Shown here one piece after another: positions 2,982 to 14,884 of a stretch of 42,479 nucleotides of DNA. The translations under genes and the position numbers were made by a program. The number at the start of each line of letters is the position of its first letter. Positions within the stretch are counted from its first letter, which is position 1. Source of the DNA: a virus (Duplodnaviria; Caudoviricetes); the IMG/VR virus record IMGVR_UViG_3300031453_000005, positions 1 to 42,479 of that record. One strand, 5' to 3'. The notes below the pieces were generated by a model that was given only the letters and a program-made list of their open reading frames with translations, had not been told where the DNA came from and did not search any database.

Positions 2982-4013
2982 TCAAACCTTGTTCATGATT
3001 CTGCCCCGGCCAATCGACTTTATCGCAGATCGGGCAAGCCTCTCCTGGTCGGCTGCAAGTGTGTAGCGCTGAACCTCTGCGAGCGTCTTGTGCCCCGTCA
3101 CGGCCGCGATCTGGTGCGCTGTGCAACCGGCCTCGGCCATGCGTCGTGCAGCAGCCTTGCGGAGGCCGTGCGGGCTAAGCCCGTCTGGTAGGCCGGACGC
3201 CGTTACCCACTTCGCGAACCGCATGTAGAAGCCGTTGGGTGTAAATGGCGCGCCGCGTTCGGTCATCAGGAACGTCAGCCGATCGGTCTCGAGGGCTATC
3301 AGGTCCGCCAGCTCGGCATGCAGCGGGATCAGCAGCCGCGCCCCTGTTTTCTGCTGGCGGACCTCGATCGCGTCCCCTCGAATATGCTGCCGACCCATCC
3401 GAACCACGTCGCTGCGGCGCTGCCCGGTGTAGAGCATGAGAGCCAGCGCCAGTCGCGGTCGCGTTCCGGCAGCCCAGCGCGCCTCGAAAGCCGCGATGTC
3501 CTCCTCACTCCATGTCTCCGCACCCTCGCCGTGTTCTTTGAGCCGGTCCACATCACGCGTTGGGTCAGTTTGGATTAGGCCTTGTCGGATCGCATGCTTC
3601 ATCAGCGCACGCAGGGTCCGCAGGAAGTGGTTTGCCGCAGCCGGTGTCGCTGACCGGGCCTCCATCATCTCGCGCACCTTTTGTGCTTGGAGATGCGCGA
3701 CCCGCTTGATGCCGTGCGCATGCACCATGTCATCAATAATCCGACGATACACTCGCTGCGTACTTGCTGCGAGTTGACGGTATGCGGAGCTGGCAAGATA
3801 GCTGCGGGACACGGCTTCGATTGAGCCCTCGACCACGCGATCAGTCTTTGCGATTGGCTCGGACGCTGCCAGGGCAGCGGCATAAGCTTCGTGGAACGAA
3901 GGATCATCCTGCGCCGGCAGCGTAATCCGCTTGCAACCCGGCCGGCGGAAATACAGGCGCGGTCGCCCGTAGCGGTCTTTGAAGGCCTGCACATATTTCA
4001 GACGCACGATCAC
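2982..4013 (-). CDS. int: Prophage tyrosine integrase
   Basis: YTGQRRSD, QQKTG, HGLRK, GH, QRY motifs; N-terminal KDRYGRPRLYFRR; GTG start just after the xis stop. Confidence 0.95.
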   Translation of the reverse strand: MIVRLKYVQAFKDRYGRPRLYFRRPGCKRITLPAQDDPSFHEAYAAALAASEPIAKTDRVVEGSIEAVSRSYLASSAYRQLAASTQRVYRRIIDDMVHAHGIKRVAHLQAQKVREMMEARSATPAAANHFLRTLRALMKHAIRQGLIQTDPTRDVDRLKEHGEGAETWSEEDIAAFEARWAAGTRPRLALALMLYTGQRRSDVVRMGRQHIRGDAIEVRQQKTGARLLIPLHAELADLIALETDRLTFLMTERGAPFTPNGFYMRFAKWVTASGLPDGLSPHGLRKAAARRMAEAGCTAHQIAAVTGHKTLAEVQRYTLAADQERLARSAIKSIGRGRIMNKV

Positions 4014-4014
4014 G

Positions 4015-4251
4015 TCAGCCCCAATCGTTCTCCAGCGTTGATGCTGCCCCTCTGGCCCCCTGTCGCGCAATCCATGCGTCGAGATCAGCCCGGCGCCAGC
4101 CGATGCGCTTCACCGTGAGCCGGATCGGGGGCACGGCCGGCGCGACTTGCTCTCGGAATGTCGTCGGCGAGAGGGACAGGTAGGCAGCCGCCCACTCTTC
4201 GTGCAGCACGGCTGGCCAGCCGGGGAGGACGGGGCGGCCGTCGTTAGGCAT
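4015..4251 (-). CDS. AlpA/excisionase-like DNA-binding protein
   Basis: AAAYLSLSPTTF...PIRL..KRIGWRRADLDAWI; directly upstream of int. Confidence 0.85.
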   Translation of the reverse strand: MPNDGRPVLPGWPAVLHEEWAAAYLSLSPTTFREQVAPAVPPIRLTVKRIGWRRADLDAWIARQGARGAASTLENDWG

Positions 4252-5282: not shown

Positions 5283-5797
5283 TTACCTCCCGCCACGGCA
5301 GCAAGCCGGGCAGCCGCCAGCAGCGCCAGCGCACCGAGCAACACAGTCCAGCTTGCTGGCTCTGACGTCGCCACCACCATATTGCCAGGCGTGCTCGCCG
5401 CGATTTCGCTCAGAGCCGGCGCAGCCTGATGGCTTGAGCCGATCGGCACCAACACACCGGGGAACCCAGCGAGCGCGCTGCCGGGCACGCCTGGTGCAAA
5501 GCCCCCGCCGCCACTGGGATAGCCGCCGGCACCGGCATAGGGAGCGCCATATCCGCCCATGCCGCCATACGGTGCATCATACCCGCCGCCGTAGGGCAGC
5601 GGAGGAAGCAGCGGCAACAATCCGCCGACGATCAGCCCCGCCTTGAGGCACACGGGCGGCAGGTTTTCGACCAGCACTCGTGGCGCATGCCAGTGCGGGT
5701 GACCGATTGCCCAGCGGTGCCAGCGGTGGATTGTGTTGACTGATACCCAGCGCCAGCAGCGTGTGAGTGGGTCCAGGATGTAGCGGCCGGTCATCAC
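5279..5797 (-). CDS. Gly/Tyr/Pro-rich protein with a PEP-CTERM-like C-terminus
   Basis: YGG repeats; ends TSEPASWTVLLGALALLAAARL. Confidence 0.6.
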   Translation of the reverse strand: MMTGRYILDPLTRCWRWVSVNTIHRWHRWAIGHPHWHAPRVLVENLPPVCLKAGLIVGGLLPLLPPLPYGGGYDAPYGGMGGYGAPYAGAGGYPSGGGGFAPGVPGSALAGFPGVLVPIGSSHQAAPALSEIAASTPGNMVVATSEPASWTVLLGALALLAAARLAAVAGGK

Positions 5798-8700
5798 TCG
5801 GCCGCTTCCATTCCCGGAGCGTCGAGTATGTCGAACAGCGTCGGCGTCGCGCGCTTCTCGTCCTCGGCCCGGCAGTAGGCGACGGCGTCGCGCCAGTAGG
5901 ACCGGCTTAGCTCGGTGCCGAGACCCTGGCGACCTAGCTTCACTGCCCGCAGCGGCACGGTGCCGATGCCGGCAAACGGGTCATAGACGACGTCCCCGGG
6001 ATTGGAGAACTGGACGATTAGCCGATCGACGATGTCGAATTGCAGCGGGCACAGATGCACCTCGCGCCCCTTCTGCACCTGCTCTCCGTTTAGCGTCCGC
6101 ATGCGCGCCACGTCGGTCCAAACGTCAGGGTGCGGCGAGTGCGGCGGGAACAGCATGAACGTCGCCGGTAGGCGCTGGAGCGCGTCCAGGTCCTCGGAAA
6201 TCCCAAGGTGCTCGCGGTAGTCGTAGACCCGATCGGTCGACCGCGCGCGCCACCACTTGAACATCTGCTCGTGCGGCAGGGAGCGCAGATCGTCGCCGGA
6301 CAGCAACCGATCCCCCGACGATCGCGCATAGCCATGGGCATCGATCTGCCAGGCCGCGCGCGAGTAGCCCGTGCCAGGCGCCGGTCGCTTCCAATTGGTG
6401 CGCTTGTCGAACGGTGCTGTGGTGTCGTCGTCCAGGAAGCAGAGCGGCTTCTCCTTCACGACGCGATCATCCGCATAGCCAGAGCTCGCATCGGTCGGCG
6501 GGCGGCGGAGCAGCAGCAGGTATTCCGGCACGCCGCACCCCATGCGCGACCCGTCCTTGCACTGCTCCGACCAGCCGAGCCGGTAAGTCTGGTTGTTCTC
6601 GCGCACAACGTCGGTCGTGATCGTCTTCATCCCCAGCAGCGCGAAGCCGTGCCGGCGATAATGCTCAATCGCCTCGCAGTGGAACGGATGCAGGGTTTGG
6701 AACCCCAGGCCACTCAGGCCGCCGGGCATGATCCGGTCCTTGACATGCACAGCCATGACCCGGCCGGGATGCAGCACCCGGAGCAGGTTCGGCGTCAGGT
6801 AGTCCATCTGCCGCCAGAAATGGTCGTTGTCGTCTGTGTGGCCGAAATCGCAGTTGCCGCTGATCGAGATCACGCCGTTGCGACGCACAACAAGCGTTCC
6901 GTTCGGGACCTTGGCGCACCCGATCATGCCAGAATATGCAAGGAGATCGGGCGCCCGCCTGATTTCGGGAAACACCTGACTGCGGCCGATCCGGACGACG
7001 TTGCCTCGAATGGCCGTGCCCCAGCCCGTCAGAAAAGCAATGTGTTGGAAGTCGTCTCGCAGCTTCGGACTGACTGAAGCGTAGTCGAACCCTCGGGCGC
7101 CACCGTCGCCCTTCATCATCGTGTCGCGCAGGATGAGGAGGAGCGTCCCGTCCAGTTCTTTGACCCAGGCCGGAATGGACTTGTGGTAGGAGCCTGATCC
7201 GAACTCTGAAACCAGCAAGCGCGCCAATGCCCGATTGTGAGCGATGATCGCTTTAGCGTTGATCTGGACAGTCAGCCCGATCCTGTTGAACAGGGCGCAG
7301 ATTTCATCACGATACTTGGGGTGGACCAGCGACTGCGAAATCGTGATCCGCCCGGCATGCGGACCTCCCAACGCATCGCAATAGCCCTCTGACAGATACC
7401 AACCCGCCAGTTCCATGAAGTCTTCGACGGCGATGCTTCCAAGTTCCTTTCCAACAGGCCCGCGAGCACCACGAGCGGCCGGCAGAACTTCGATGCGCTT
7501 GGGGTTCTTGCCGATCGGCAAATACCGGATGGCGTTGACCATTCGGTATTTGCGGGAGACGAAATTGTCGGCGATCTCCGACGCCCGCACTTTGCCATAG
7601 CGCCTGTCCTTCCGCCCGGTCTCCTGGTTTCCCACACGGCGATCCACGAACATGCCGTGATCCGGGGTGACAAGAAGGTCGAAGTTGTTGCTGTTAACGA
7701 AGTGGAGCATGTCTCCTGAGTAGTGCTCCCACACCGTCGCGATCGGGTGCTGCCACTCTAGGGACAAGAGGCTCTGATCCACGGTCGCAAGCTTGTCTAT
7801 TAACCCGACCTCGCCGAAGCTGATCCAACCACGATCCGACAAGACCTCCGTGCTCTCATCGTAGCAGTAGTTCGGCGTGTACTCGTATTGGGTGGCGAAC
7901 GGAATCGAGGTGACGATCAGCCCGACGCTGGCCTCATCCATCGCAGCCGTCTCGATCACAGTGTCGTTGTTGATCAAGCGCCAGGCGTCTCCCGCGGCCT
8001 CCTCGCGCGGTACGTGCATCTCGCGCTGGAGCGACTGCGCCATCGCGAGCCGGTTCAGCCCGTATTCGCGGACGATCCCGCGCATGATCTCGACCTGTTC
8101 GTCATGCCGGGCCCACTTCGTCTCGATCGCCCGACGAACCTCCCGCTCGGCCTCGCTGTAGATGAAGTCGACCCGCACCGGCTGCGTCTGCCCGAAGCGG
8201 TGTACACGGTGGCACGCCTGGATCATGTCGTAAAATTTAAAGCCGATCCCGAGGAAGATCGACCATGCGCAATGCCGCTGGAAGTTGCATCCGACGCCGG
8301 TGACTGAGGGTTTGCCGGCGAGCTCGGCGAACAGCCCGTCCGAAAAGCCGATGATATTGGCCTCGCGCGTCTCGAGGTCCTGCGACCCATAGACCGACAT
8401 GACGCCAGGGATCGCCGCTTCGATTGCCCGGCGCTCGTCCTCGAGATCGTGCCAGAGGATGCGATGCGCGCCGGGGTTCTCGTCCCGCAACTCGATCATT
8501 TTCGCAATGCGGGTTCCCAGGGTGGCCCGCTTCTCGGCCGCGGCATCCGATACGCCGATCGCTGCATTACGGAACATGCGGCCCTGGCCGTCGCGCTCTG
8601 CGCCGGCTTTCGAGTGATCGCTCGGCACCTCGTGCCAGCGCACGTCGAGCGGCGGCAGATCATATCCCTCGTCGGAATGTCCGAGATCGGATGGCCTGGT

Positions 8701-9417
8701 CAGGAACAGCGCCCAGGATGCAACCCAACACCAGAACTCGCGCTCCTTGTGGGGATGCAGGGTCAGCTTGTCGGCGTTGCTGCTGTTGCGTTTGAAGAAG
8801 CGCGTTTTCGCCTCGCCGACCTCCATCACGCCAAGGAATGCGGCATAGCTGAGCAGCTCGATGTATTCGTTCGGGCTGGGTGTCGCCGTGGCAACGAAGC
8901 GGAACCGCGTGCCCTCGAACTGGCGCATCAGCTCGCGGAACGTCTTGCTACCGCCGAACCCGCGCAGAATTGCGGCCTCGTCCAGACTGACCGCATCGAA
9001 CAGAGAGACATCGATCTTGCCCTCGCGCACGCTCTCATAGTTGGTAAGGTAGATGCCCGGGCCGGCGATCTCGGCCGTGGTGCGGATGAACGGAAGGTCG
9101 AGATCGAGCATGCCATCGTCGCGGGTGAACTCCTGGCGCACACCGAGCGGCAGGACGATCAGCCCATACTTGATCTCGCCGCGTTCGATGAGCTGTCGCA
9201 TCGCCTCAATCTGCATGAGCGTCTTACCCATGCCGAAGCCGGCGAATAGCGCGGCGCGACCCTTGCGCAGCATCCAGGACACCGCGTCGCGCTGGTGCGG
9301 CTTGAGGACGGGATGCAGGTCTTCCGGCATTATGGCTGCGATGCCGGCCTCGCCAAACTGCGCCACCTTGGCCCTGAGGAAGTCCTCGTAGCTGGGCTCG
9401 TGCACGGTGATGCTCAT
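5794..9417 (-). CDS. SNF2-type helicase fused to an N4/N6 DNA methyltransferase, intein-containing
   Basis: GFGMGKT, LDEAA, TATP, QACHRVHRFGQ helicase motifs; MTase VTSIPF and YDPFAGIGT. Confidence 0.92.
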   Translation of the reverse strand: MSITVHEPSYEDFLRAKVAQFGEAGIAAIMPEDLHPVLKPHQRDAVSWMLRKGRAALFAGFGMGKTLMQIEAMRQLIERGEIKYGLIVLPLGVRQEFTRDDGMLDLDLPFIRTTAEIAGPGIYLTNYESVREGKIDVSLFDAVSLDEAAILRGFGGSKTFRELMRQFEGTRFRFVATATPSPNEYIELLSYAAFLGVMEVGEAKTRFFKRNSSNADKLTLHPHKEREFWCWVASWALFLTRPSDLGHSDEGYDLPPLDVRWHEVPSDHSKAGAERDGQGRMFRNAAIGVSDAAAEKRATLGTRIAKMIELRDENPGAHRILWHDLEDERRAIEAAIPGVMSVYGSQDLETREANIIGFSDGLFAELAGKPSVTGVGCNFQRHCAWSIFLGIGFKFYDMIQACHRVHRFGQTQPVRVDFIYSEAEREVRRAIETKWARHDEQVEIMRGIVREYGLNRLAMAQSLQREMHVPREEAAGDAWRLINNDTVIETAAMDEASVGLIVTSIPFATQYEYTPNYCYDESTEVLSDRGWISFGEVGLIDKLATVDQSLLSLEWQHPIATVWEHYSGDMLHFVNSNNFDLLVTPDHGMFVDRRVGNQETGRKDRRYGKVRASEIADNFVSRKYRMVNAIRYLPIGKNPKRIEVLPAARGARGPVGKELGSIAVEDFMELAGWYLSEGYCDALGGPHAGRITISQSLVHPKYRDEICALFNRIGLTVQINAKAIIAHNRALARLLVSEFGSGSYHKSIPAWVKELDGTLLLILRDTMMKGDGGARGFDYASVSPKLRDDFQHIAFLTGWGTAIRGNVVRIGRSQVFPEIRRAPDLLAYSGMIGCAKVPNGTLVVRRNGVISISGNCDFGHTDDNDHFWRQMDYLTPNLLRVLHPGRVMAVHVKDRIMPGGLSGLGFQTLHPFHCEAIEHYRRHGFALLGMKTITTDVVRENNQTYRLGWSEQCKDGSRMGCGVPEYLLLLRRPPTDASSGYADDRVVKEKPLCFLDDDTTAPFDKRTNWKRPAPGTGYSRAAWQIDAHGYARSSGDRLLSGDDLRSLPHEQMFKWWRARSTDRVYDYREHLGISEDLDALQRLPATFMLFPPHSPHPDVWTDVARMRTLNGEQVQKGREVHLCPLQFDIVDRLIVQFSNPGDVVYDPFAGIGTVPLRAVKLGRQGLGTELSRSYWRDAVAYCRAEDEKRATPTLFDILDAPGMEAAE
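6853..7866 (-). mobile_element. Intein (338 aa) with a LAGLIDADG homing endonuclease
   Basis: Starts CYDESTEVL, block B VTPDH, LAGWYLSEG and MMKGDG motifs, ends VRRNG..SGN, +1 residue Cys. Confidence 0.92.
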
Positions 9418-9575
9418 GGCGCACCTCCGCTCGCCGGCAAGCACCGCCCCTCGGCCTCCAATTGCGGCGGCTCACCCTCGTCGATGCAGGTCCAGTAGCA
9501 TTCGCGATTGCCGCGGCACCAGTCGGGATCGGGGCAGCCGGGCGGGTGGCGGCGATGGTCGGCGGGGATGATCAT
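9414..9575 (-). CDS. Small Cys-rich protein (53 aa, not in the ORF track)
   Basis: MIIPADHRRHPPGCPDPDWCRGNRECYWTC...; ATGA overlaps at both ends fill the gap exactly. Confidence 0.6.
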   Translation of the reverse strand: MIIPADHRRHPPGCPDPDWCRGNRECYWTCIDEGEPPQLEAEGRCLPASGGAP

Positions 9576-11996: not shown

Positions 11997-12220
11997 GCGG
12001 ACACCTGCAAGCCGGCCGGCGCCGGTATCTCAGTGCCGAAGTGCTCGCCAGCAAGCCTGGCCAGCGTCATAACGCGGACGCTGATGCTACCGCGAGCGGT
12101 ATCTTGGCCGGACGTGAGCGCCAGCTTCGTCGCCTCCGCGACCAGGCTCCTTACAAGCAGCGCCTCAAGGCTGGGCGCCGCATCTGGCTGGTGCGCGATG
12201 GTGATGTTCTGCGGGCTCAT
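11993..12220 (-). CDS. Hypothetical phage protein
   Basis: ATGA-coupled at both ends. Confidence 0.6.
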   Translation of the reverse strand: MSPQNITIAHQPDAAPSLEALLVRSLVAEATKLALTSGQDTARGSISVRVMTLARLAGEHFGTEIPAPAGLQVSA

Positions 12221-12948
12221 GCCGAAACTCCTGCATCGGCGCGCAACGATGCGAGCGTGGTTTCATTGTCCGCATAAAAATTTGGGACAGGCTGGCCTGG
12301 ACGAGAGACCAGATAGATGAGCGTGCCGGCCGCCTCTGACCCGACTTTGCGCTCAAGCTCCTTTCCGGCCTCGCCAGCCGTCACCACCGCCCATCCGGCC
12401 CTACAATGAGACGTGCCGCAGGGGTGGTGCCAGGAAGACATATCCAGTCCGCCACCAGCCTCGATGGCAGCGAGAATTGCGGCGTCAAGGTTGGGAACGA
12501 TAGGAATATCGCTCAGGGAGGCATCGCTCAGGACGGCACCGCTCAGGTCGGCACCGCGCAGGTCGGCACTGCTCAGGTCGGCACCGCTTAAGACGGCACT
12601 GCTCAGGGCGGCACCGCGCAGGGAGGCGTCTCTCAGGTCGGCGTCGCTCAGGTCGGCGTAGCGCAGGTCGGCACCGCGCAGGGAGGCGTCGCTCAGGTCG
12701 GCGTAGCGCAGGTCGGCATCGCGCAGGGAGGCGTCTCTCAGGTCGGCGTCGCTCAGGTCGGCGTAGCGCAGGTCGGCACCGCGCAGGGAGGCGTCGCTTA
12801 AGACGGCACCGCTGTCAAATGTCCAATTCACTGCTGCGCCAATTTTCAAGCGCCAGTCTAGCCAAGTTGGAATTTCAGATATGAACTGCACCTCCCCCGT
12901 CCAACGGTTATTGACGGGGTAGCTCTCGGTCTGCGGCGCCTCGGCCAT
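12217..12948 (-). CDS. Pentapeptide-repeat protein, first gene of the leftward operon
   Basis: About 19 A(D/S/V)L(R/S)x repeats; C-terminal WHHPCGTSHCRAGW; GGAGG RBS. Confidence 0.9.
   Translation of the reverse strand: MAEAPQTESYPVNNRWTGEVQFISEIPTWLDWRLKIGAAVNWTFDSGAVLSDASLRGADLRYADLSDADLRDASLRDADLRYADLSDASLRGADLRYADLSDADLRDASLRGAALSSAVLSGADLSSADLRGADLSGAVLSDASLSDIPIVPNLDAAILAAIEAGGGLDMSSWHHPCGTSHCRAGWAVVTAGEAGKELERKVGSEAAGTLIYLVSRPGQPVPNFYADNETTLASLRADAGVSA
12523..12815 (-). repeat. 15-bp-period tandem repeat encoding the pentapeptides
   Basis: Recurrent units such as gcgcaggtcggc and gctcaggtcggc. Confidence 0.9.
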
Positions 12949-12986
12949 CTCGGTCCTCCAGGGCGCCGGGGTGGCGCTGATGGAGC

Positions 12987-13030
12987 ACACTAAGCAATGC
13001 CTAGCACTCCTGTCAATAGGCATTGCCTAG
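12987..13030 (-). promoter_or_regulatory. PL-like promoter with two repressor operators
   Basis: Minus strand TTGACA-N18-TAGTGT; operators CTAAGCAATGCCTAG (12990-13004) and ATAGGCATTGCCTAG (13016-13030). Confidence 0.8.
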
Positions 13031-13065
13031 CAGACGATCGGGATTGTTCGAGCTACCTTGCGTTC

Positions 13066-13368
13066 ATGGATGATCCGCCGGAGAGCGACGCGGCCAATGG
13101 GCTTAACTCGGTTCAGAATGACCTTGCTGCTGCTGCTGAGTTTTTCCAGAAAGCCAAGGCTGCGGCTGCCTGTCCCATTTGCAATAATCCGACTTGGGAA
13201 ATGCTGTATGCGGGCGAAGACCTTGATCTACGGCCAGCCCTGTCGATGCTAGCTGTGAGCTCTTCGCAAAAGCACCTAGTGCCGCCGCAAATGCCGTTAG
13301 TCGGGCTCGTCTGCACGAACTGCGCTTACGTCCGGCTTCACATCAGGCAGAAGGTGCTTGGTCAGTGA
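13066..13368 (+). CDS. Zn-ribbon protein (moron gene 1)
   Basis: CPIC...CTNC pairs; lower GC. Confidence 0.75.
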   Translation: MDDPPESDAANGLNSVQNDLAAAAEFFQKAKAAAACPICNNPTWEMLYAGEDLDLRPALSMLAVSSSQKHLVPPQMPLVGLVCTNCAYVRLHIRQKVLGQ

Positions 13369-13721
13369 GCAGCAGCGGCCAATATCATCGACCGGTTCCA
13401 CCACTGACCACGGTGGCAGGGTCGGATTTTGTTGCCGGAAGTGGACCGCCACCCCATGATCCGGGAATGGAAGCGCGCGTCACAGCGATTGAGAGCCGTC
13501 TAGACCGCATCGAGGTCAAGATCGATAAATTTGACGAGCGACTGCGATCCGTCGAAACCGGCATATCTGCCCTGGATGCAAAGATGACGCTGCTAGCTGA
13601 GAAGATTGTCAGCAAGCTTCCAAGTTGGTGGCAGATGCCGACCGCAGCAGTGGGGACGATTGCCGCTCTTGGGGCTTTGGTAGCGCTCGCTCAGCGGTTG
13701 CATATATTCGGAGCACAATAG
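13365..13721 (+). CDS. Coiled-coil protein with a C-terminal TM helix (moron gene 2; alternative start 13467)
   Basis: MEARVTAIESRLDRIEVKIDK heptads then hydrophobic helix; GTGA overlap with the previous gene. Confidence 0.75.
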   Translation: MSSSGQYHRPVPPLTTVAGSDFVAGSGPPPHDPGMEARVTAIESRLDRIEVKIDKFDERLRSVETGISALDAKMTLLAEKIVSKLPSWWQMPTAAVGTIAALGALVALAQRLHIFGAQ

Positions 13722-13754
13722 CGAAAGCCAGAAGTTTTCCCTAATCTCGATATG

Positions 13755-13806
13755 TAGACAGGCATTCCGTCCTAAGGCATGTTCTTGAGACGTTCACGTC
13801 TGGAGG
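13755..13806 (+). promoter_or_regulatory. Putative SOS promoter with an alphaproteobacterial LexA box, plus RBS
   Basis: TAGACA-N17-CATGTT; GTTCTTGAGACGTTC (13781-13795) = GTTC-N7-GTTC; GGAGG at 13802. Confidence 0.7.
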
Positions 13807-13813
13807 CAGCGTC

Positions 13814-14056
13814 TTGGGCCAACTATGCAGATTTCCGGCGAGCAGCGGCCAACGTCTCTGCCGTGGTGAGCAATGCGTTCCGCTCGTCAAGAGACAACAA
13901 AGTCCAAGCGCGGCGGATCAAGAGAAGCTGCTGCTCGACCGATTGCTGAACCTCGTAGACACCCTTGAAGCCAGAGCGCGGGACGACGGAGCCAAACGGT
14001 CGGCTCAGGTCTTCTCCGCAGAGTTCGTCAAGAGTCACGTCGTAGAGAGCAGATAA
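13814..14056 (+). CDS. Candidate SOS-induced antirepressor, antisense-overlapping cI
   Basis: TTG start 7 nt after GGAGG, downstream of the LexA box; function inferred. Confidence 0.45.
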   Translation: MGQLCRFPASSGQRLCRGEQCVPLVKRQQSPSAADQEKLLLDRLLNLVDTLEARARDDGAKRSAQVFSAEFVKSHVVESR

Positions 14057-14212
14057 CTCAAGCAGCTTGTCGATTGCAGGCTTACTACGCCCCAACTCCC
14101 ACTGAGCTACGGAAGCCGGGGCGATGTTGAAGTGCTTCGCGACTGCGGCTTGCGACAGTCTAGGCTGCGTCGCATTCCGTAGTCGTCGCAACCGATCGGG
14201 CCAGGCTTCCAT
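13823..14212 (-). CDS. cI: CI-like XRE repressor without an S24 peptidase domain
   Basis: RLRRLR..LSQAAVAKHFNIAPASVAQWELGRSKP HTH; divergent from cro; 129 aa. Confidence 0.9.
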   Translation of the reverse strand: MEAWPDRLRRLRNATQPRLSQAAVAKHFNIAPASVAQWELGRSKPAIDKLLELSALYDVTLDELCGEDLSRPFGSVVPRSGFKGVYEVQQSVEQQLLLIRRAWTLLSLDERNALLTTAETLAAARRKSA

Positions 14213-14215
14213 CCA

Positions 14216-14291
14216 ATAAGCATCGCCTACCGCGAACGGTAGCGCGCCTAGTGTTTGCCTATTGACGCGCACGCTAAGCAACGCCTAGTGT
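14216..14291 (+). promoter_or_regulatory. OR region: three operators and the PR promoter
   Basis: ATAAGCATCGCCTAC, CTAGTGTTTGCCTAT, CTAAGCAACGCCTAG; TTGACG-N18-TAGTGT. Confidence 0.8.
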
Positions 14292-14297
14292 CGCATC

Positions 14298-14516
14298 ATG
14301 CGAACTGTAGACCCTGTAATCGAGATTGCCATCAGAGCTGCCGGCAGTCCGACGGCTCTGGCTCGCATTGCGGGCGTGAAACTTCCTTCGATCTATTCTT
14401 GGTCACGCATCCCCGCTGAACGGGTGATCGCAGTTGAGGCCGCGACGGGCGTCCCGCGGCATGTTCTGAGGCCAGACGTCTTTCCGGCGCCAGTTCCGGA
14501 CACCCAGGCAGCATGA
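14298..14516 (+). CDS. cro: Cro/YdaS-like regulator
   Basis: AIRAAGSPTALARIAGV..SIYSW.RIPAERVIAVEAATGVPRHVLRPDVF. Confidence 0.92.
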   Translation: MRTVDPVIEIAIRAAGSPTALARIAGVKLPSIYSWSRIPAERVIAVEAATGVPRHVLRPDVFPAPVPDTQAA

Positions 14517-14884
14517 CCGCTGACCCGCGCCCACTCGACACCATGCTCTCCCCCGGTGAGCACCGCCGCCGCTGGGCGATCGAGCAGCTCATACACATGC
14601 GATTGCGGTGGAAAGACGGCGCACAGCTTTGCAATGCCGCCGGCGACCTTGCCGATTTCGTTGGCGGACATCTGCCTCCCGACGTCATCTCCAAGCCATC
14701 AGGCCCGACACCGGCCGCGCCGCTGGAACTGCAAGTGCAGATCCAAATGCTGGTTGCCGATGTCGAGCTGCTGAGGGGGTGGGTTAGGTCGCTTTCTGTG
14801 GGCCGCGAAGGTCGGTCAGAGCCGCGTGATACGCAGCCTGAACCGCATCCCGCCCGTCCCAATCCAGAGGGAGGACCGGCTTGA
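14513..14884 (+). CDS. Hypothetical phage protein
   Basis: ATGA-coupled to cro. Confidence 0.6.
   Translation: MTADPRPLDTMLSPGEHRRRWAIEQLIHMRLRWKDGAQLCNAAGDLADFVGGHLPPDVISKPSGPTPAAPLELQVQIQMLVADVELLRGWVRSLSVGREGRSEPRDTQPEPHPARPNPEGGPA

Follow-up and report, generated by a model that had tools for sequence, protein, structure and literature searches.

The window, by which we mean the whole stretch of 42,479 nucleotides that was analysed, is a viral contig whose proteins (portal, coat, terminase, two tyrosine integrases and RecT) mark it as a temperate P22-like phage. The nearest named relatives of its cI helix-turn-helix (HTH) domain are found in Gluconobacter, Gluconacetobacter and Acetobacter genomes, so that the host family is likely to be Acetobacteraceae and an alphaproteobacterial host, as presumed in the first-pass annotation of this DNA, is the most likely one. 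The region around cI contains the following features.

12987..13030, minus strand: left operator region with two operator-like palindromes and a predicted pL (TTGACA, 18 nt, TAGTGT), from sequence and motif scan
13066..13721, plus strand: two accessory genes in the interval between pL and the box, one for a four-cysteine protein, the other for a protein with a coiled coil plus a membrane helix
13755..13783, plus strand: predicted promoter facing cI (-35 TAGACA at 13755-13760, 17 nt, -10 CATGTT at 13778-13783)
13781..13795, plus strand: LexA-type box GTTC-TTGAGAC-GTTC, overlapping the -10 and the predicted start site (~13790)
13802..13806, plus strand: Shine-Dalgarno (SD) sequence GGAGG, 7 nt ahead of the TTG (duplex of -9.3 kcal/mol with a generic anti-SD)
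13814..14056, plus strand: 80-codon ORF with a TTG start, candidate antirepressor, antisense and in register to cI residues 53-129
13823..14212, minus strand: cI-like repressor of 129 aa (Pfam, PHROGs), stop codon at 13823-13825
14217..14291, plus strand: right operator region with TAGGC-N3-GCCTA-like sites at 14217 and 14274 (motif scan), common to relatives
14262..14291, plus strand: predicted pR (TTGACG 14262-67, 18 nt, TAGTGT 14286-91), from sequence
14298..14516, plus strand: cro-like gene of 72 aa (PF15943, PF14549, phrog_35), divergent from cI

Domain searches matched HTH_3 in the cI product and no Peptidase_S24, in agreement with the first-pass description of a 129-aa repressor devoid of the S24 autopeptidase. 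RecA-cleavable repressors of the λ type carry this domain at their C-terminus, whereas the cI of the window lacks it. In the AlphaFold model of the protein (mean pLDDT 86.8), an HTH domain (residues ~4-65) is followed by a low-confidence linker (73-86, pLDDT under 50) and a C-terminal helical hairpin (92-128). The S24 domain is present in the close HTH relatives at loci L120 and L127, and a tblastn search of phages and plasmids with cI returned only distant HTH proteins, mostly Gram-positive. The accessory genes, with products of ~100-123 and 118 aa, matched no receptor-like family and thus are not arbitrium aimR/aimP; a look-alike gene pair occupies the equivalent place at locus L132.

A perfect GTTC-N7-GTTC had been placed about 30 bp past the cI stop at first pass; all coordinates were confirmed, with 27 nt between box and stop codon. 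The predicted TAGACA-N17-CATGTT promoter facing cI, with the box lying across its -10 and start, is likewise read directly from the sequence. It matches the E. coli consensus at 8 of 12 positions and, falling below the threshold of the promoter scan, was left uncalled. The perfect box occurs once in the whole window, where chance predicts 1.17 copies, and one is present in 68 of 100 shuffles: taken alone, without comparison, the box does not exceed chance. When scored with a leave-one-out matrix made from the other boxes, it reaches 7.8, below several unrelated sites of the window. With the box count at chance level and the promoter under threshold, the case rests on comparison.

The motif itself finds its counterpart in the likely hosts. 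GAAC-N7-GAAC lies upstream of lexA in 3/3 such Acetobacteraceae genomes and a box is present upstream of recA in 2/3; the Caulobacter LexA consensus is given as GTTCN7GTTC in the available text of PMC12700426. The identification of GTTC-N7-GTTC as the alphaproteobacterial LexA site is supported. Judging from the motif, it is highly probable that LexA binds the box of the window.

The promoter is kept in two further records (5 and 6 of run X2), and the layout TAGAC-N17-YATGTT recurs at an unrelated locus, L267. The 18 listed differences (19 in total) between record 5 and the window all lie outside the hexamers, box, SD and start; the two are 97.6% identical at the accessory-gene and switch region, which makes the integrity of these elements weak evidence. 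Record 6 retains the promoter and both half-sites with 6 of the 7 spacer bases of the box changed. There, in an alignment to window 13736-13784, the same promoter and box lead into AGGA and an ATG. Among the 119 viral-contig loci with the exact promoter-plus-box pattern, none matched the cI profile. No intrinsic terminator was found in 12800-14600.

What the earlier annotation missed is the GGAGG site and the TTG-started frame of 80 codons that lie just beyond the box. Of the 243 nt of this ORF, 234 overlap cI. An ATG at 13779, opening a 56-codon frame, was considered as the start of the product and rejected because it sits within the -10 element. The model of the ORF product (mean pLDDT 68.7, pTM 0.38) has a predicted helix at residues 33-62 that lies largely opposite the cI linker 73-86. 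Neither a stand-alone homologue nor homology to known antirepressor families was detected by homologue search or in Atlas, PHROGs, Pfam and NCBIfam, and a profile comparison gave no sign that the antisense proteins mimic cI. The predicted 5' end of the transcript (13790-13840, plus strand) can fold so as to pair the SD with the early coding region (-16 kcal/mol), a structure that could damp leaky translation; the folding z-score of the wider region is only -1.7.

The arrangement was followed in relatives through cro-like genes from 401 genomes each of Acetobacteraceae and Alphaproteobacteria, comprising the loci returned and another 54 hits in short frames; XRE genes were kept if they are divergent from cro and have 150 nt of downstream DNA. 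In this cro-linked set, 45 of 56 repressors are without S24. A perfect box facing the gene within 150 nt was found behind 10 of the 45 S24-less repressors and none of the 11 S24-bearing ones, a contrast that in the cro-anchored set has p 0.18. These ten boxes lie 26-76 nt past the stop, in hosts that are nearly all Acetobacteraceae. By comparison, one of 130 windows taken further downstream contains a box, and the genome background is 0.0026 per window. Some related prophages thus carry the same box 3' of cI; the perfect box is absent in 35 of the 45. Adding rows found by similarity gives 13/50 S24-less against 0/24 S24-bearing (Fisher 0.007), and clustering the rows gives 12/44 against 0/13 (p 0.05). 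The spacer is exactly 7 in 13 of the 50 rows; spacers of 3-6 and 8-12 account for 0-1 rows each. A held-out test added three new box rows (4/29 against 1/44, p 0.08), one of them a loose match at a gene without a cro neighbour. On comparison with relatives, then, the box at this place and in this orientation exceeds what chance would produce, and its occurrence tracks with loss of the S24 domain, with the proviso that the cro-anchored contrast alone stands at p 0.18.

The rows with a box are dispersed through the HTH tree, requiring 12 changes, at least 8 of them forced by well-supported branches, and the HTH of the window's cI nests among S24-bearing repressors in this tree of 75 columns with many open forks. 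This distribution suggests that the C-terminal module has been exchanged. Of the close S24-less relatives, A. musti L128 has the box 52 nt past the stop and L132 has it at 115 nt, in the same orientation; no perfect box was seen among the close S24-bearing HTH relatives, nor at the more distant S24-less locus L140. The row that represents L132 in the 13/50 count is the second, 109-aa repressor of that locus. L132 contains two immunity-like modules; behind each repressor stands a LexA box that faces it, at 115 nt in one and 118 nt in the other. The A. musti strain with the L128 module, LMG 30640, also carries a second one (L480, G001:C3) with a similar 3' flank. Its SD is strong and its ATG lies at -9; GAAC-N4-GTTC replaces the N7 box there, possibly for another regulator.

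In the class-wide survey of Alphaproteobacteria, cI-cro pairs were few and a perfect facing box was absent from all of them; spread beyond Acetobacteraceae therefore rests on the viral contigs L334, L362, L374 and L375 (an HTH hit was obtained in 22 of 120 viral contig loci). At two loci, L321 and L390, small LexA-boxed ORFs are convergent with S24-bearing repressors without overlapping them.

The frame recurs with the box. All 8 box-bearing genes of group A have an in-frame start between the box and the cI stop, and their antisense frames remain open for 62-88 codons; in A. musti L128 an SD and ATG stand at the same -9 offset as the ORF start of the window. SD strength does not separate genes with the box from box-less S24-less genes (p 0.61) and does separate them from S24 genes (p 0.025). 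A start and open frame exist without the box in several group A genes (L291, L270, L440, L480). Five cro-linked genes of the held-out set have a start and open frame, one with a perfect facing box, one with a near-perfect box, one with a reversed box and two with none; three others have neither box nor frame. In a second family, with repressors of ~100 aa (L278, L280, L219, L275, L258, L289, L211, L282, L294 and L298), proline-rich antisense ORFs of 46-66 aa occur in a different frame, mostly with a strong SD; their length appears to be forced by the cI sequence.

In-register antisense frames are often open, and for the window gene alone an open frame has a probability of 0.12 by chance; controls within the gene were used for this reason. 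We counted in cI the codons TTA, CTA and TCA, which stop the antisense frame, for 8 repressors that have the box and a helical C-terminus, among them the window's and L217, which has a near-perfect box, lacks a cro call and was added by hand. Relative to all Leu/Ser codons, these triplets number 22/92 in the first 60 codons and 0/105 in the last 60 (p 1e-8); the corresponding counts in S24 genes are 57/266 and 70/222. The five cro-anchored loci by themselves give 13/52 and 0/64. TTA and CTA are the most depleted. No other A-ending codon is depleted individually, although ATA, GTA and ACA together fall from 7 to 0. Box-less group A genes are depleted too (31 vs 15, p 0.001), and the held-out set points in the same direction without reaching significance.

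Two further tests used 19 aligned genes that were picked for open frames and are mutually related. In the overlap, synonymous choice is conserved site by site (1189 vs 1038 +/- 26, a value attained in 0/300 shuffles), whereas the HTH control of the same genes is unremarkable (737 vs 729, 103/300 shuffles). Similarly, conservation of the antisense protein exceeds a synonymous null throughout the three overlapped parts (0-3/200) and not in the HTH (141/200); in the linker, this protein surpasses cI in conservation at 10 of 15 columns, compared with 0 of 49 HTH columns. Amino-acid identity is 0.32 in the N half and 0.29 in the C half (the pairs being non-independent), which speaks against recent sharing of the C half. 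To a large extent, the antisense proteins resemble one another because conserved residues of cI force them to, and for this reason resemblances of the KVV-D type were rejected as evidence. Taken at the family level, the pattern of selection argues that the ORF is a real coding gene; for the window gene by itself the chance of an open frame is the 0.12 given above. It is likely that the ORF is translated in the phage of the window.

These properties inspire comparison with the AimX-AimC-AimL system of the Bacillus phi106 family. In phi106, a LexA site precedes a 29-aa aimX ORF that overlaps aimC by 30 bp; in this pair, the one system of such a layout that has been tested, stop mutations abolished the effect and recoding of the overlap did not, the protein rather than the antisense RNA being the effector (10.1101/2025.11.23.689978, in the portion available). 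Antisense action had been the earlier hypothesis for this same locus (10.1101/2021.09.20.460909, abridged text). In both systems, a LexA-type site immediately precedes a small ORF (29-80 aa) that converges on the repressor gene and overlaps its 3' end. AimC, like the window's cI, is short and non-cleavable, is encoded divergently from a cro-like gene and consists of an HTH, a linker and C-terminal helices, and AimX is a small helical antirepressor, as the window product is predicted to be. The window differs from extended arbitrium (aimR-aimP-aimX-aimC-aimL) in having no aimR receptor or aimP peptide genes upstream, and from phi106 in its alphaproteobacterial box and host; no sequence similarity to the phi106 system was found. 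The overlap differs in extent as well: it takes in 234 of 243 nt, in register, where that of phi106 spans 30 bp, although aimX genes with longer overlaps may exist.

A non-cleavable repressor is also a feature of the systems of GfoA/GftA (Gifsy phages), Tum (186) and AntC (N15) (PMC3121763, in part), with which the window would further share SOS sensing through host LexA and a small protein antirepressor. According to the same text, the Gifsy antirepressor genes are separate units outside the immunity region, whereas the ORF described here lies inside the repressor gene, on its other strand.

The OOP RNA of phage λ is short and has no known role as a protein. Unlike such short non-coding RNAs with a terminator of their own, the window transcript would carry an SD and an 80-codon frame, and no intrinsic terminator was called. 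The likeness would lie in a transcript of the phage that promotes lysis and has a LexA site at its promoter; OOP is cited, in the text available, as an antisense RNA on cII-O mRNA (PMC5869508). It targets cII in a phage with a self-cleaving CI, whereas the element of the window faces the repressor gene.

We lean towards the reading that the locus encodes an AimX-like antirepressor which is gated by LexA and whose gene lies within that of its target, cI. In a lysogen, host LexA would hold the promoter shut. Upon DNA damage, RecA-stimulated cleavage of LexA would open it, and an mRNA starting at ~13790 would be translated from the TTG at 13814 into a helical product of 80 aa. By analogy with AimX on AimC, this product would bind CI, most likely at the C-terminal helical hairpin, and break the CI oligomer; pR and pL would be freed and the prophage induced. 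Antisense transcription may help, probably in a secondary way. That the ORF product acts as an antirepressor is, we believe, probable. The first-pass proposal of an SOS switch at this site is probably correct, given a box that matches those of the host lexA genes and tracks with S24 loss.

The same proposal held that the transcript silences cI by antisense action or collision. In its present form this explanation would have the SOS transcript act in cis, through collision or RNA pairing, with translation of the frame merely carrying polymerase past Rho. The promoter does face cI, the 234-nt overlap far exceeds the 30 bp of aimX, no terminator intervenes, and the suppression of cII by OOP, with a LexA site in oop-pO, provides a precedent (PMC5869508, in part); moreover, cis silencing predicts avoidance of stop codons too and is congruent with the use of different frames in different repressor families. 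It does not predict conservation of the antisense amino acids above a synonymous null, and a stable bound repressor would be expected to survive silencing of its mRNA. Nor does silencing as the main mechanism sit well with the SD and with an 80-codon frame that the family keeps open and whose protein sequence it conserves. When the start codon was changed to a stop in phi106 and phiW23, the response was lost while the transcript remained, and the aimX/aimC effect, lost with stops, was unaffected by recoding of the overlap (10.1101/2025.11.23.689978, portion available). On the analogy with aimX and the protein-level selection, we prefer the embedded antirepressor and regard silencing in cis as rather unlikely.

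It is less likely still that the ORF specifies an SOS-induced protein with another job (inhibitor of growth or division, protease adaptor, antagonist of a co-resident prophage), the prophage being induced otherwise or never. Binding of the product to CI is a prediction, small LexA-boxed ORFs are common in alphaproteobacterial phages, also facing cleavable repressors, and in record 6 of run X2 the promoter and box lead to a different ribosome-binding site and ATG. Yet in the surveyed pairs the box stands solely behind peptidase-less repressors, it is the sole perfect box of this phage, and none of the 43-45 window proteins scanned matched a known antirepressor family. We consider it very improbable that box and ORF reflect chance or a decayed relic. 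The 1.17 boxes expected per window, the 0.12 probability of an open frame and the low leave-one-out score could be read in this way, as could the general openness of in-register antisense frames in GC-rich genes, box-less XRE genes among them holding such frames open for more than 120 codons. Against this, box, promoter, SD and start are found within 60 nt, placed and oriented as in unrelated relatives, and record 5, weak witness as it is at 97.6% identity, has none of its listed differences (18 of 19) in these elements.

If the embedded antirepressor is real, it would explain how DNA damage is sensed by prophages whose repressors are short and non-cleavable and which have no annotated antirepressor: the gene goes unannotated because it sits within cI on the opposite strand. 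With 45 of 56 cro-linked repressors lacking S24, the question is not marginal. It would extend the aimX logic outside Bacillus and outside arbitrium, and provide a rare bacterial antisense overlapping gene backed by evidence of selection. The alphaproteobacterial host, the near-complete in-register embedding and the family-wide evidence of dual coding are new here; no report of such a layout in Alphaproteobacteria was found in the literature searched, most subscription journals lying outside it. It is tempting to speculate, as a conjecture for which the balance is not quite even, that prophages of Alphaproteobacteria widely use a switch of this type, with repressor and antirepressor on opposite strands of the same codons. 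Oligomerisation module and inhibitor would then make up a single exchangeable cassette in place of the S24 self-cleavage domain, inseparable by recombination and co-evolving base for base, the antirepressor having been born by overprinting with its helix opposite the disordered linker. A single synonymous change in cI can stop the hidden protein while leaving the repressor unchanged.

Some observations concern other genes of the window. Inteins begin with Cys and end with Gly-Asn followed by Cys. In the helicase/DNA methylase gene at 5794-9444, a 338-aa segment (6853-7866, minus strand) starts with Cys and ends with Gly-Asn before Cys, and so looks intein-like; family searches returned no intein match for it. 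The two tyrosine integrase genes are arranged in tandem on the minus strand (1425-2876 and 2982-4070), and a pentapeptide-repeat protein (12217-13023, minus strand) is encoded by the first gene downstream of the predicted pL.
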